A DNA stretch of 64,000 nt from Coraliomargarita sp. (lineage in GTDB: Bacteria; Verrucomicrobiota; Verrucomicrobiia; Opitutales; Coraliomargaritaceae). The DNA lies in assembly GCA_965216325.1 (NCBI GenBank), contig OZ244160.1:1088001-1152000 (forward strand), given 5' to 3'. The position numbers and the translations under genes were made by a program. This document shows, in pieces, positions 19,280 to 24,965 of the stretch. Every line of letters begins with the position of its first letter. The stretch's first letter is position 1. The notes under the pieces were generated by a model. It ran no database searches and was not told the origin of the DNA. It saw only the letters and a list, made by a program, of their open reading frames with translations.

Positions 19280-20512
19280 TTATCCGAAGAAACGCTGAAG
19301 CTTGGTGACCGCATTGACCAAACGCTCGACGTCATCGAAGTTGTTGTAAAACGCAAACGAGGCCCTCGCGGTGGCAGGCACGCCAAAACGCTTCAGTAGT
19401 GGTTGGGTGCAGTGGTGACCAGCACGGATTGCGACTCCATCGGCGTCCAGAAAGGTGCCGATATCATGCGGGTGAATCTCGTCGATTAAGAATGAAATAA
19501 CCGAGGCCTTGTTTGGAGAGGTTCCATAGATGCACAGACCATCAATTGCACTGAGTTGCTCGGTTGCAGCAGTGAGCAGAGCTTGCTCATGCGCAAGCGC
19601 CCCGACTCGATCAATGCCACCGAGATAGTCGATAGCGGCCGAAAGCCCGATCACACCCGCAATGTGTGGCGTGCCGGCTTCAAACTTACCAGGGATGCCC
19701 TTGTAGGTGGTTCCGTCGAAGTCGACCTTTTCGATCATATCACCGCCGCTTTGGTATGGTGGGAGGCGTTCAAGCCATTCGCGCTTCCCCCAAAGAACTC
19801 CGATGCCGGTGGGGCCAAACACCTTGTGACCTGAAAACACGAAAAACTCGCAGTCGATATCCGCGACATCCACCGCTGTGTGTGGCGTGCTTTGTGCACC
19901 ATCGACCAAGACTGGAACGCCCAGCGCATGGGTCTTGCGGACGATCTCTTTGACCGGATTGATGGTGCCGAGTGCATTGGAGCAATGCACGACCGAGACT
20001 AACTTGGTCTTCTCGCACAGCAGCTGATCAAAGGCTTCCATATCGAGGACTCCATCGTCGTCGACCGGAACGACCTTGAGGACTGCTCCAGTCTTCTCAC
20101 AGGCGATCTGCCAGGGCACTATGTTCGCATGGTGCTCCATGTGCGTGATCAAGATCTCATCACCAGCCTTCAAGATCGATTGGGTGAAACCGTGAGCGAC
20201 AAGATTAATGCCCTCAGTCGTGCCACGGGTGAAAATGATCTCATCTTCATCGTCGATATTGATGAACTTCGCAACTTTGCCGCGTGTTGCTTCGTAGGCA
20301 TCCGTTGCTTGCTCACTGAGATAGTGGACCCCTCGATGAATATTCGAATTCTCCAGCGCGTAGTAGCGTTCCAAGGCATCAATTACCTGCTTTGGCTTCT
20401 GTGCAGTCGCAGCATTGTCCAAATAGGTCAAGGGCTTGCCGCGCACTTCGCTGGCAAGTATCGGGAAATCGGCTCGGATGGCATCCAAGTTGAATGGCTT
20501 TATCTCAGTCAC
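19280..20512 (-). CDS. sufS: Group II cysteine desulfurase
   Basis: YLDNAAT, EHHAN, SGHK PLP lysine, RAGHHC. Confidence 0.95.
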
Positions 20513-20626: not shown

Positions 20627-21307
20627 ATGCATTACAAACAGGACGGTAAGATACTCACCTACGCCATCGTGCTCACCGCCCTCATTACTGCATCGATTCT
20701 CGGGCTTTCGATGTATTTTTCCAGCTCGACGGTCCACGACTTGTTGACAGAAAACCATGCGCTGAACAAAGCGATTCGGAATCTAACCGATGAACAGCAG
20801 ATCGGCTATGCGACACTGCAATCCAGAACTCGCAACGAATTTGGAGAGCCGGAGAGTGTGGTGCGTTTTGTGCAGACGGCCCCGGGCGATCCGCGTGAGA
20901 TCGTTTCGGAGCAGCTTTTCATGGTTGAAGGAGACATCGTCCATTTCGACGCCTTAATCGTCAAATTCAGCGACCGCTACGTCAAAGAAGGCAAAGGGCG
21001 CGCACTTTACCTGTGGCGGCGCGTCTACAGTGAACACACCCCACCCTCCAGTGGTGAAGCGATCGAGCTCCCAGGCAGCGCTCCAGAGCGTTACTACGAG
21101 ATTACGAAGACCTTGAAAATCAAGGATCGAGACATTTTCTGGGAGGCGATCTGGGACCTCGCCAATGACCCGCAGCAACTCAGCCAGTATGGGATTACCG
21201 CAGTCTACGGTGAGGCGATCTATTTCAAATTGGCTGCGGACAAGCTCTATCGCTTTAAAGTAAGCCCCCAGGGACAGCTTTACGCCGAGGTCGTCGACGC
21301 TCGTTGA
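20627..21307 (+). CDS. Hypothetical protein with N-terminal TM anchor
   Basis: About 226-aa ORF filling the gap between sufS and the IS; no motif recognised. Confidence 0.65.
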
Positions 21308-21379
21308 AAGACGCCCCTTCTTCTTCGTAGATGACATGGGCGTTTATCAGGAGCACGGAAGTGCTATGATGATAAACTT

Positions 21380-22468
21380 ATGCAAAACCCCACATCATCT
21401 ACACGGACAACTAAGAACGCACTGGGCACAGTAATCAAGCTTGGCATTGACGTGCATGCGAGCACCTACGTGGTGGTCATGAAGATCGATAGCAGCGCCC
21501 CTTCACGCGCGAAGCGCATGAAGCCTGATATCTTCCTTCGATGGATTAAGCAGCTGAGCACTCAGTGCGAGCAGTTGCAAAGTTGCTACGAGGCCGGTCC
21601 TTTTGGTTACAGCCTGCACCGCAAGCTCAAGGCGATGGGCGTGAACAACCACGTAATCCGCCCGATCAACTGGGACACTCATGGTAAGAAGGTAAAGACC
21701 GACGCGCGTGATGCGTTGCAAATGGTCTTGAGTCTGGACGGCTATCTGCGGGGCAATGACCGCAGCTTCAGTGTCGTGCGTGTGCCCAGCGAGCAAGAAG
21801 AGCGTCACCGCAGCCTAACCCGGCAGCGTGAAAGCTTCGTCAAAGAACGTGGCCGTGCGGCCAAGCGTGGTAAGAGTCTGGGACTGTATTACGATCAACC
21901 CTTACCCAGCGGCTGGTGGAAGCCGCGCAAATGGATGCAGCTACTCGAACAGCTCGACGATTTTTTGATCAGCCTGCTGGAGCCACTGCGGTTAAACTGC
22001 CTGCACTTTAGCGAGCTAATCAGCAACATCGAAGAACGTATCGAAGCGCTCGAGCCGGAACGGGTGCTGCCTAAAGGCATGGGGGTGGTCCTCTATGAAC
22101 AGATCGAACGTGAGGTCTGCAACTGGAAGCGATTCAACAACCGCAAGGCGGTCAGTTCCTTTACCGGACTGTGCCCAAGCGAAGACACTAGTGCAAATCG
22201 GCGTTTCCAGGGCTCGATCAACAAACACGGCAGTCCCCGCCTGCGGCATATGCTACAAGAGTGCGCCTGGTTATTGATCCGGTGGAATCCCGGCTACAGT
22301 GGGGTGCGTAAATGGCAGGCCAAGCTCAGCGACGAGACCACCAGTAAGGCGACCCGCAAGAAAATTGCCGTGGCCATCGCCCGGCAGTTCGCCGTGGACT
22401 GGTGGCGCATACGCACTGGCCAATGCAGTCTCGAAGACTTCGGACTGATAAGCAGACAAAACCCATAA
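21380..22468 (+). CDS. IS110-family DEDD transposase/recombinase
   Basis: GIDVH, CYEAG, KTDARD; C-terminal domain GLCPSEDTS...GSINKHGSPRLR...KIAVAIAR. Confidence 0.95.
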   Translation: MQNPTSSTRTTKNALGTVIKLGIDVHASTYVVVMKIDSSAPSRAKRMKPDIFLRWIKQLSTQCEQLQSCYEAGPFGYSLHRKLKAMGVNNHVIRPINWDTHGKKVKTDARDALQMVLSLDGYLRGNDRSFSVVRVPSEQEERHRSLTRQRESFVKERGRAAKRGKSLGLYYDQPLPSGWWKPRKWMQLLEQLDDFLISLLEPLRLNCLHFSELISNIEERIEALEPERVLPKGMGVVLYEQIEREVCNWKRFNNRKAVSSFTGLCPSEDTSANRRFQGSINKHGSPRLRHMLQECAWLLIRWNPGYSGVRKWQAKLSDETTSKATRKKIAVAIARQFAVDWWRIRTGQCSLEDFGLISRQNP

Positions 22469-22530
22469 GTCCGAACCAACGCTAAAGGCCTTCACCCTCT
22501 GATTTTAACGTTCTTTTGCAGTTTTCCTTT

Positions 22531-22690
22531 GTGCGGAGTGAGTCTGACCAAGCCCCTGTTGCCAACACAACGATTTTGTAGAATAGGCCACTTCGCCACC
22601 AAGCTTTTGAATGACCCAATGGATAGGTCATAGTGTGCTCTTCTGAGAAACACTCAGAAACACGGATAGCAGGTTATCCCGGATCATCGA
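22531..22690 (+). ncRNA. Candidate IS110 bridge/seek RNA (boundaries approximate)
   Basis: Two stem-loops with internal loops; aagcccctg (22550-58) is the reverse complement of the right flank; catagtg (22629-35) and atagca (22666-71) match the predicted circle junction. Confidence 0.6.
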
Positions 22691-22802
22691 AACTCCGAGG
22701 CCATGCGCGGTGGACGCTCAAAGACGATTGCAATCAAAACAAACCACTTATCTTATGTAAAAACACTCACACGCTTCTACACTCTTGACAGAAACGAACA
22801 TA

Positions 22803-22908
22803 GCAGGGGCTTTGCTTGCCTTCGAGCATGAGCTCAGGCCGAATGGCGAAGCCCGCATCAGATCAGTCGCATTCACATCGGTTCGGGCGTCGCAAGCAAC
22901 GCCCCTAC
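22803..22908. repeat. Inverted REP pair (GTAGGGGC type) abutting the IS right end
   Basis: 22885-22908 reads GTAGGGGCGTTGCTTGCGACGCCC on the minus strand; degenerate partner GCAGGGGCTTTGCTTGCC starts at 22803 on the plus strand. Confidence 0.75.
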
Positions 22909-22976
22909 AATTTCCAGTAATAGCGATTCCAACAAAGCGAGTTGCCATTCCAGAACTTCCTGTTTGTTTACGCCGC

Positions 22977-23237
22977 ATGGGCAAAATCATCTTTAAACGT
23001 TCCGGCGTCGAGTTCGAGTGGACTGGCGACGATGAAAGCATTCTTGAACTCGCCGAGGCGAATGACCTCGATCTCGATTTCGGCTGCCGAATGGGCAACT
23101 GCACGGCCTGCCAGCACGAGGTGGTCTCTGGTGAAGTTGAATATCCCAATGGCCATACAGGGGAACCCGATGAGGGCTATCAGCTGCTTTGCTGCTGCAC
23201 GCCGATGGGCGATGACGATGTTATCATCAACGCCTAA
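22977..23237 (+). CDS. 2Fe-2S ferredoxin
   Basis: [22 protein letters not shown]; real start at MGKIIFK because the longer ORF begins inside the IS end. Confidence 0.88.
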
Positions 23238-23315: not shown

Positions 23316-24965
23316 CTACCACCATGCTTCGGCTTGAACACCAAAGGTGATGCCGTCGGTATCATTGCCGTATGTGGTCGGGGCAACAAAGGTTTCGAAG
23401 TCATCACTCCACCAAGCATAGGTGACAAACATCCGAATTGCCGGGCGAGCAAAGTGCCCTCTGCCTGGGGTAATCTGCGGGGCAATGGTAAGCTTGTAAA
23501 CCTCGCCGGAGATATCGGAGATGTCAGAGTCGGTGTGATCGACACCTGCCTCAAAAGCCAGCGACCAGTAGTCGTTGAAATGGTAGACGGGACGGACACC
23601 AAACGAAACCCATTCAATTTCGGAGTCCTCCACTAGACCAGCGTCCACCAGGTCATAGACAAAAGTCGCCTGCATGGTCCAGTTGGTGTTGTCTGGTTCG
23701 ATGACGAAGTCATCGGTAAAACGGAAGTGCCAGATGTCAGAATAGTCGACTACGGTTGGGTTCATTGCATCACCTGAGCCAGTGCCGTCGAAGTCGGGCT
23801 CGGTTGACTTGAAGTTCGCAGCTGCACCAAAACCGTATTGGACCATGGCCCGGTTGCGCCCACCAAGGATCTCGGAACTTTCATGCAGGATACCGAAGGC
23901 AGCACCCGCATCGCCCTTGATATTGACGTCATTGTTGCCATTCGGGCTATCATTGTCGTCGAGGTCGGCGATCGCGGCCCAGAGCATTGCTTTACCGCCC
24001 GGCACGTCGATGTCCTTAATGCGCACGTCCAGGGTATTTTTACCATTGATTGTTGCATCCTCGACATCGACACCACCGCCTTCAAGTTCGTCAATGCTGC
24101 CCCCGAGCCATGCGACTGAGAGTGTGCCGAAGTCACCCAATTGGATGTCTTGGACGCCGCCACCGAAACCACTCATATCGAGGTAGTAGAAGTCGGTCAT
24201 GTGCACATCGTAGCGATCGTAGTAGATTTGCCCGGCCCAGAAGGTGGCCTCTGGCTGCTCCGCCCAAACGCCCTTAGCAGAGGCGTAAGCCTGCCGCATG
24301 GAGAAGACCGTGTCGTCGGCGTTGGACGTCGGGATGACGTAAGATGGCATGAAGCCAACGTAGAATTCCGTGCCTTCGGGAAGGTCGAGATCCGGGAAGG
24401 TGTAGCCAAAGAGCATTTCGACATAGGTCTCGGCCTCATTACCCAAACGGTATTTGGAACCAGCGCCCGGCGCTTGGAAAGCCTCCATGGTATTGCCGTC
24501 ATCATCTACACCCAGCCCCGAGCGGAAGTAACCGCCAAACTCAAAGCCGCGTGTAACGTCAAATTTATCGAAACTCTCCTCTATCTGAGCCATCTGGGCT
24601 TCGCTGAGCGCATCGCTCTGAGCCGCTGCAGAGTTCGCAGTATTGGCTGCGGTGCTGGCCTTTGCTTCGGCGGCGACCGCACGTTGCTCCACTTGAGCAA
24701 GCTTCGCTTGATCTTCGACGCGTTCGGACTCGAGTTCTTCGACTCGATTTTTCAGTTGCTTGATCTCCGACTCGTAACTTGCACGCATCGCTTCAATCTC
24801 AGCACGTATTTGCGCGAACGCATCGGCCTGAGTCTGAGCAGCATCGGCAGATGCTGTGGCGGCTTCTTGGGCAACGGCCTGATTGAAGACAAACAGGCTG
24901 CTACCAGCGACTGAGAGCATACAGAAAGCTCTCCTCATTGCAGGGTAATTGGTAAGCATAGCCAA
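23316..24965 (-). CDS. LamB/ScrY-type carbohydrate porin with N-terminal coiled coil
   Basis: FGGYFRSG, KYRLGNEAETY, WAGQIYYDRYDVHMTDFYY, RPAIRMF, terminal FGVQAEAWW; start may be 24938. Confidence 0.9.
   Translation of the reverse strand: MAMLTNYPAMRRAFCMLSVAGSSLFVFNQAVAQEAATASADAAQTQADAFAQIRAEIEAMRASYESEIKQLKNRVEELESERVEDQAKLAQVEQRAVAAEAKASTAANTANSAAAQSDALSEAQMAQIEESFDKFDVTRGFEFGGYFRSGLGVDDDGNTMEAFQAPGAGSKYRLGNEAETYVEMLFGYTFPDLDLPEGTEFYVGFMPSYVIPTSNADDTVFSMRQAYASAKGVWAEQPEATFWAGQIYYDRYDVHMTDFYYLDMSGFGGGVQDIQLGDFGTLSVAWLGGSIDELEGGGVDVEDATINGKNTLDVRIKDIDVPGGKAMLWAAIADLDDNDSPNGNNDVNIKGDAGAAFGILHESSEILGGRNRAMVQYGFGAAANFKSTEPDFDGTGSGDAMNPTVVDYSDIWHFRFTDDFVIEPDNTNWTMQATFVYDLVDAGLVEDSEIEWVSFGVRPVYHFNDYWSLAFEAGVDHTDSDISDISGEVYKLTIAPQITPGRGHFARPAIRMFVTYAWWSDDFETFVAPTTYGNDTDGITFGVQAEAWW

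Follow-up and report, generated by a model that had tools for sequence, protein, structure and literature searches.

The window analysed here, a stretch of 64,000 nucleotides from the genome of Coraliomargarita sp. (assembly GCA_965216325.1, contig OZ244160.1), carries a mobile element that is very probably an IS110-family insertion sequence (IS) of IS1111-type layout, with a guide RNA in its right end that works with a DEDD/Ser recombinase. The ends of the element, its core dinucleotide, its target family and four guides can all be defined from the sequence alone, and comparison with relatives establishes a conserved RNA-type fold and the covariation of the four guides with DNA. By analogy with ISEc11, ISPa11, ISKpn4 and IS621, the RNA would be made and bound by the recombinase, and the element would pass through a circular intermediate. 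The system was worked out in Proteobacteria, and the element would add a clean, fully readable natural case of RNA-guided transposition from beyond that group.

Transposase, ends and target of the element

The transposase has the domains of the IS110 family. PF02371 was matched with an E-value of 4.9e-14 (52.9 bits) and PF01548 with an E-value of 9.4e-07 (29.2 bits, cut-off 29). An earlier note, written from the letters of the window, had called an IS110-family element here, and the open reading frame (ORF) at 21380-22468 with both Pfam domains, followed by a non-coding end of 336 nt, bears this out. The NCBIfam model NF033542 ('IS110 family RNA-guided transposase') gave 137.8 bits (E 4.7e-40, residues 21-344), below its cut-off of 140, a near miss that points to a divergent branch. 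Residues D24, E71, D108, D111 and S271 are invariant across 37 aligned relatives, and the roles of the catalytic D, E, D, D and Ser residues are taken from the literature. They align with the motifs of ISCro4 and IS621 in a profile match that is marginal (profile search of the PDB: ISCro4 E 0.0011, IS621 E 0.0076); a search of the PDB with the single transposase sequence gave no match at E<=0.01. The serine motif reads GLCPSEDTSA, in which GL.P and Ser are kept and Ala replaces Gly, and Ser-Ala also stands in the consensus of the 37 relatives. In a tblastn search of a plasmid collection, all 1001 records matched at less than 60% identity. Among the matches listed, which were 40 rows at even steps down the ranking of the 1001 records, the named IS were all below 30% identity (ISSso6 28.9%, ISEc45 27.3%, ISRel9 25.7%). 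By protein, the element thus appears distant from every named element.

The genome is a single contig of 3.06 Mb and contains nine full-length copies of the element, every one rounding to 100% identity. Comparison of these genomic copies with unoccupied sites places the body of the IS at 21331-22804 on the forward strand (1474 bp). The copies start alike at GTAG followed by ATGACATGG, the sequence further left being unrelated among the nine; in copy L002, AG alone precedes ATGAC at the left end. At the right boundary, the nine copies agree through ..CATAGC-AG-GGGCTT. In addition, the unitigs assembled from public sequencing runs of this organism have their breaks at 21329 and 22813/22819, and their depth over the element is 9.5x and 8.3x the flank depth. 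Because nine copies and the empty sites agree, the element is read as 21331-22804 with AG on both sides. Terminal inverted repeats are absent, insertion is site-specific and only AG is found on both sides, which is the pattern of the IS110 family.

The target is a family of repeats resembling repetitive extragenic palindromic (REP) sequences, which is spread throughout the genome. Insertion takes place at the 5' foot of the REP-like hairpin, where the empty site reads ..TTGT-AG-GGGCTT.., and unoccupied members of the family have the form ..TTGT-AG-GGGCTTTGCTTGC..GAAGCCCGC. Genome-wide, 34 sites with GTAGGGGCTT and 8 with TTGTAGGGGCTT are unoccupied, and 9 sites are occupied. At one locus (L006, G000:C1:1550961-1555470), a copy of the element borders a tandem array in which at least five REP-bearing units recur every ~290 nt; each unit has a near-perfect target (..gcgttGTAGGGGCTTTGCTTGC..), and a single unit is occupied. 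At another (L013, G000:C1:1266318-1266370, minus strand), an element-free REP reads ..cgTAG-C-AG-GGGCTT.. and exceeds normal empty sites by 3 bases, which equal the final base of the element together with the core. Because these bases are expected from recombination through the other AG, at 22802-03, L013 may be an excision scar.

The earlier note had drawn different boundaries, with the element at 21360/62-22803, cores at 21360-61 and 22802-03, a loop 1 with a right guide only and a loop 2 that reads the junction of those ends. AG does occur at both of these positions, the 9-nt complement between 22550-58 and 22804-12 is exact, and a rare exchange at the AG of 22802-03 would account for the extra C-AG of L013. 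However, this model can hardly be correct, since the 30 nt left of 21360 are common to all nine copies, which become unrelated only further left. The 'C' of CAGGGGCTT is also missing from the empty sites, which read TAGGGGCTT, the repeat unitigs begin at 21329, and the conserved left end of the relatives starts at the same place. The copies begin at 21329/21331, about 30 nt left of the end proposed at ~21360, so that gagcacgga (21351-59), taken for the left flank, is internal. The dinucleotide AG was rightly named as the core and wrongly located, the true positions being 21329-30 and 22805-06. Because the left end was 30 nt and the right core 3 nt off, the empty target gagcacgga-AG-caggggctt does not agree with the actual empty sites, and the circle junction gaacat-AG-tgctatgat is void. 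The search for other copies and empty sites that the note advised yielded nine copies and many unoccupied sites, with ends differing from those of its model. A correct idea can rest on wrong boundaries.

Predicted guide RNA and its agreement with target and element ends

The non-coding ends of the element measure 49 nt on the left (21331-79) and 336 nt on the right (22469-22804). The right end contains two structured domains that hold the four guides (Table 1), and the core is included in three of the four (22556-57, 22580-81, 22671-72). Stem-loop 1 of the earlier note exists at ~22533-22596, and its string aagcccctg is, as claimed, the exact reverse complement of the 9 nt on the right side (AAGCCCCTG at 22550-22558 with CAGGGGCTT at 22804-22812). 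The absence of a left-target guide from that layout was an artefact of the left end misplaced by 30 nt: UUGU-AG lies on the 3' strand of loop 1 (22576-81), and since it has the same sense as the left target and core, it could pair with the bottom strand. Stem-loop 2 likewise corresponds to a structured domain (~22611-22679), with its donor matches read against the wrong junction; the strings catagtg (22629-35), atagca (22666-71) and cacgga (22661-66) stand where they were reported, and the meanings attached to them are void. The minimum-energy fold also contains hairpins AUGACC/GGUCAU (22611-16/22626-31) and GGAUA/UAUCC (22664-68/22675-79), which may exist in the free RNA and were not adopted as the functional form.

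The fold is conserved among relatives. At E<=0.001, the database search found 1300 relatives of the transposase, of which those that carry a name come mostly from Verrucomicrobiota, e.g., Coraliomargarita, and 79 loci of relatives were fetched from genomes. A covariance model (R1), built from six sequences, recognised the RNA in ~65 related loci, mostly of Verrucomicrobiota. Of the 80 sources searched, 66 contained a match (67 matches in total, 58 with E<=0.01), and all matches but one were downstream of the gene on the same strand. On 48 distinct sequences, 90.3% of the cells pair, compared with 73.1% after shuffling (none of 500 shuffles as high); pairing falls to 32-42% when the partners are slid by 1-3 columns, and 20 of the 33 pairs have changed on both sides. 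In domain 1, pairing of the helices (helices 1-5) ranges over 84-98%, with both-sided changes at 14 of 18 pairs, and P4 (helix 7) is 91.7% paired, with such changes at 5 of 7. G-U pairs are frequent (e.g., 39 of 48 at columns 31/144), which fits an RNA of the gene strand, because the opposite strand would show C-A mismatches. Within the genome R1 has ten matches, namely the nine copies and a second element (L022), and the search found no orphan RNA copies. Eight of the nine copies have the same score of 147 bits each; L002 (G000:C1:2070347-2070517, minus strand), with one substitution in helix P4, scores 139.1 bits.

The target guides change together with the DNA that they would read. The ends of the relatives were located by end motifs, and the score was the longest exact core-anchored match between a loop strand and its own flank; loci without ends, exact duplicates, one mis-called right end (flank without AG) and two truncated loops were left out of the counts. 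The right guide matches its cognate flank over a mean of 7.5 nt, against 4.35 +/- 0.30 nt after permutation of the flank sets among the guides (52 rows, 22 distinct guides), and the left guide over 4.74 nt, against 3.12 +/- 0.23 nt (37 rows, 21 distinct guides). In both cases none of 10,000 permutations was as good, so the covariation of guide and target that the earlier note had named as a check is found for both target guides. For example, the window and L023 combine guide AAGCCC with target GGGCTT, the Synoicihabitans copies combine UGACCC with GGGTCA, and L094, L070 and L066 each have an 11-nt match, all three different. Four other exact inverted pairs of 9-10 nt occur in the same 1.5 kb, so the 9-nt complement of the window would not by itself be beyond chance; its meaning comes from its placement in a conserved internal loop and from its covariation in relatives.

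The second element in the same genome provides a further case. L022 (G000:C1:2769008-2772060) is a diverged, single-copy IS110-family element at ~463-1996 in locus coordinates, with a transposase of 384 aa (517-1671); at 1688-1847, R1 matches it with 39.9 bits. The guide of L022 differs and predicts 8 nt of right target, which are found exactly after its right end and AG. Natural retargeting is visible across relatives and inside one genome. The flanks of L022 both contain a 19-nt direct repeat. In one metagenome-assembled genome (L050-L058, L076, L078 and L084), the RNA lies ~430 nt past the end of the transposase match, farther than in the others; L055 has a further RNA copy at a distance of ~300 nt on the other strand, which points to elements arranged head to head.

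The donor strands agree with the element ends in a similar way. On the right-donor side, ATGAC occurs with GUCAU (9 loci) and AAAAC with GUUUU (4 loci), both with 5 of 5 pairs, and the AAAAC ends were predicted from the RNA first and located afterwards. TTAAC with GAUAA (14 loci) and ATAAC with GAUAU (10 loci) form 4 of 5 pairs. On the left-donor side, RNA and right end share ATAGC-AG in 42 loci and ATAGG-AG in 6 loci, with one mismatch in 4 loci.

These results are consistent with the following mechanism. An RNA of ~150 nt from 22533-22679 would work with the DEDD/Ser recombinase. Loop 1 would read the target and so aim the element at the foot of the REP-like hairpin. Loop 2 would read the joined ends of the element, GUCAU pairing with bases 1-5 of the left end and AUAGC-AG matching the five terminal bases of the right end together with the core. 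The RNA would thus bridge the target and the joined ends of the circular intermediate, and exchange at the AG core would insert the circle with no target duplication beyond the shared AG. Of the programmable RNA-guided recombinase proposed in the earlier note, the target and donor loops are supported by the conserved structure and the guide-DNA covariation, and the specific ends, core and donor model fall.

Several observations weigh against this mechanism. The 338-nt non-coding end as a whole shows no unusual folding stability (z +0.86; 82 of 100 shuffles were equally or more stable), an Rfam 15 scan of 21000-23200 returned no bridge-RNA family (three unrelated snoRNA matches, all E>3), and no sigma-70-like promoter was found within 21250-22900. 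Production of the RNA is something that we infer from other systems. The pair counts were made on an alignment fitted to the model structure and are therefore biased toward it. In four of the 22 right-guide groups, the match to the own flanks does not exceed that to foreign flanks (6.44 vs 6.47, 4.5 vs 6.64, 5 vs 5.92, and 3 vs 3.14), and independent changes are fewer than rows because many relatives share the target GGGTCAG. The left guide is partly used: GT precedes AG in 8 of 9 copies, TTGT in 3 of 9, and L002 has neither. Since GGGCTT follows the element in all nine, the right guide appears to carry most of the weight in target choice. Neither the circle junction nor the empty-site joint occurs in the assembly contigs of four runs; contigs drop rare forms, so this absence is uninformative either way.

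Some of these points would suit an explanation in which the complementarity is a by-product, either of a captured REP fragment or of protein-binding DNA sites, and the protein picks the target without a guide RNA. The target is a repeated palindrome, so that capture of a fragment is possible, the region searched has no promoter-like site, RNA production is drawn from other systems, and a role in end recognition is ascribed to the sub-terminal inverted repeats of IS1111-type elements (Siddiquee et al., 2024; PMC11187229). However, relatives with unrelated targets have matching sequence at the same loop position, compensatory changes preserve the helices, and the frequent G-U pairs work as RNA on this strand only. 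Published IS1111-type elements also need and bind such an RNA (PMC11187229). We therefore regard a by-product as very improbable and favor a guide RNA.

The remaining points concern loop 2. The right-donor guide is just 5 nt long, with no core complement after it, and two of the right-donor classes have a constant mismatch. Helix 6, which the automatic consensus drew between the two donor strands, was rejected, being 69.6% paired with no double changes, as expected if the donor strands are guides and not a helix. The closing helix P3 is weakly supported (cognate duplex mean -4.09 vs -3.43 kcal/mol permuted; 52 of 5000 permutations as good). The short guide, the mismatch and the weak closing helix would fit a guide-RNA IS in which only loop 1 guides, domain 2 is a scaffold or processing signal, and the protein reads the ends via the sub-terminal repeats; moreover, an 82-nt ISEc11 RNA with target matches only sufficed for transposition (PMC11187229). 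This explanation is unlikely, though it deserves more weight than a by-product, given that donor strands track the ends in independent clades (AAAAC/GUUUU, ATGAC/GUCAU, ATAGG-AG/AUAGG-AG) and that IS621 uses such a donor loop (PMC11208160). Guidance by both loops is thus the preferred reading.

Table 1. Coordinates of the element and its predicted RNA (numbering of the window).
Feature	Position	Strand	Basis or remark
Left target flank TCGT	21325-21328	+	Window copy: only GT fits guide
Left core copy AG	21329-21330	+	Occupied vs empty sites; repeat unitigs start at 21329
Left-end hairpin in the 5' untranslated region	21335-21382	+	Element bases 5-9 (CATGG) pair with start-codon region
Transposase/recombinase gene, 362 aa, DEDD RuvC-like and Tnp domain with Ser271	21380-22468	+	Pfam, NCBIfam, invariant residues
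RNA domain 1, target-binding stem-loop	22533-22596	+	P1 22533-40/22589-96, P2 22542-46/22584-88, apical hairpin 22558-71
Right-target guide AAGCCC + CU	22550-22557	+	Complements top strand AG+GGGCTT (22805-22812)
Left-target guide UUGU + AG, loop 1 3' strand	22576-22581	+	Identical to left target + core
RNA domain 2, donor-binding loop	22621-22679	+	P3 22621-26/22674-79 (weak), P4 22633-36/22660-63 and 22641-47/22653-59
Right-donor guide GUCAU	22627-22631	+	Complements first 5 bases of element, ATGAC (21331-35)
Left-donor guide AUAGC + AG	22666-22672	+	Identical to last 5 bases of element + core (22800-22806)
TTGACA, candidate -35 of junction promoter	22785-22790	+	Complete only when ends are joined in circle
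Right core copy AG	22805-22806	+	Occupied vs empty sites
Right target GGGCTT + remainder of REP-like palindrome	22807-22857	+	9 copies, repeat family

Predicted left-end hairpin, possible junction promoter and meaning of the element

The left end of the element is predicted to fold into a hairpin that takes in the start codon of the transposase gene (-16.5 kcal/mol, z -3.94, none of 200 shuffles as stable). The same architecture appeared in 9 of 9 elements folded singly, with differing stem sequences and z from -3.2 to -8.2. When 15 sequences were aligned with MAFFT for a consensus fold, no pairs were predicted, because the 3' halves are misaligned. In read-through transcripts the AUG would possibly be hidden in this hairpin, and it would stay free in transcripts that a junction promoter initiates within the left end. 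The extreme left end, 21327-21345, is also connected with transposase codons 2-8, at 21384-21402, by an imperfect inverted repeat (79% complementary), and both arms are kept in relatives despite an otherwise variable N-terminus.

A promoter split between the two element ends is likely. In all 4 of the 4 elements checked, the distance of TTGAC(A/G) from the right end is 14 nt, and a 17-nt spacer places a -10-like hexamer at element bases 2-7 (TGACAT, TGATAT, TAACAT). Such a junction promoter, with its -35 at 22785-90 and its -10 in the left end, would drive the RNA along with the transposase gene; Siddiquee et al. (2024; PMC11187229) argue that gene and RNA are co-transcribed from a promoter of this kind. 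Sub-terminal inverted repeats of ~7-17 bp are a mark of the IS1111 group. In the window copy, the left-vs-right-end alignment has a score of 16, which 316 of 2000 shuffles reach; among relatives, shuffles as high numbered 13 of 2000 for L027, 28 of 2000 for L022 and 547 of 2000 for L041.

A wider reading joins these features in one picture, namely a mainly verrucomicrobial, uncharacterised branch of RNA-guided IS110 elements with asymmetric recognition, hairpin-limited expression, probable activity and possibly an orthogonal recombinase. We put this combination forward tentatively, as one that falls a little short of probable. Its parts differ in strength. The element probably belongs to an uncharacterised verrucomicrobial branch, the marks of divergence being less than 30% identity to named IS among the matches listed, a score just under the NCBIfam cut-off, and Ser-Ala for Ser-Gly. 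Target recognition would be strongly asymmetric, extending over as many as 9 nt plus core to the right and only 2-4 nt plus core to the left. End recognition would be shared by RNA and protein, since the right-donor guide has 5 nt and no core complement. The left-end hairpin, by sequestering the start codon, may restrict expression to the excised circle. Given nine identical copies, the element is probably active now. For genome engineering, the divergent pair of a 362-aa protein and an RNA of ~150 nt may be orthogonal to IS621 and ISCro4.

In the window, the element is intergenic and interrupts no neighbouring gene. The ORF at 19280-20512 (minus strand) codes for a cysteine-desulfurase-like protein of 410 aa, and that at 23316-24965 (minus strand) for a protein of 549 aa whose N-terminus is a coiled coil and whose C-terminal half is porin-like. 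Both descriptions come from reading the translations alone, and both genes look ordinary.

Comparison with known systems

By its layout, with a short left end, a long right end that holds the RNA, and its guide order, the element appears to be of the IS1111 type. The longer non-coding region is downstream of the transposase gene, and the top-strand match (22550-57) lies 5' of the bottom-strand match (22576-81). The same order is found in ISEc11, ISPa11 and ISKpn4 (Siddiquee et al., 2024; PMC11187229), and the reverse order in ISEc21 (PMC11187229) and in IS621 (PMC11208160). The earlier note had suspected a loop layout other than that of IS621; the layout is the published IS1111-type order (PMC11187229) and therefore differs from IS621 only in a known way.

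ISEc11, ISPa11 and ISKpn4 resemble the element in several respects reported for them: a long non-coding region downstream of the transposase gene, a longer RNA form of ~150-170 nt, a specific target (a REP in ISPa11), a promoter formed by end joining, and relatives that have been naturally retargeted (PMC11187229). In contrast to these three, the sub-terminal inverted repeat is weak in the window copy, and the host clade is Verrucomicrobiota. The transposase has 362 aa, whereas 330-350 aa are reported for IS1111-type seekRNA elements, and it has ..SA after GL.P and not the SG, TG or TA of the literature motif (PMC11187229). In the alignment columns compared, the N-terminal motifs resemble the ISSso6/ISEc45 cluster and not ISEc11/ISPa11. 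ISSso6 and ISEc45 are also the nearest named relatives among the matches listed, at 27-29% identity, and ISCARN28 adjoins both in the order of the source-data matrix of Siddiquee et al. ISCARN28, ISAzs32 and ISPa11 are given as ISfinder 'IS1111-group' examples with predicted right-end bridge RNAs (Durrant et al., 2024, Extended Data Fig. 10). Compared by the legend of that figure, they share with the element a right-end RNA predicted to have target, donor and core complementarity.

The likeness to IS621 (Durrant et al., 2024; PMC11208160; structures 8wt6-9) lies in the two internal loops for target and donor, in which one strand per loop pairs with the top DNA strand and the other with the bottom strand. 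The core dinucleotide common to target and donor and the DEDD and Ser recombinase are also similar (PMC11208160). Unlike in IS621, the RNA is in the right end and not in the left, the strand order within the loops is reversed, and the right-donor guide lacks the core complement. Protein similarity to IS621 and ISCro4 is marginal only. ISPpu9 and ISPpu10 of Pseudomonas putida also belong to the IS110 family and reside in REP sequences, and a hybrid junction promoter is formed by ISPpu10 (PMC12288879). In contrast, the small RNA Ssr9 downstream of ISPpu9 is reported as not required and separately mobile (PMC12288879), whereas no orphan RNA copy was detected by R1 in the present genome.

None of the titles listed in a literature search on IS110 elements and Verrucomicrobiota dealt with this clade; the figures or supplements of Durrant et al. 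and Siddiquee et al. may already cover the ISCARN28 branch and its layout. The mechanism, the right-end location of the RNA and the reversed guide order were already published in 2024, and the element is a clear new example of them, with no new mechanism.

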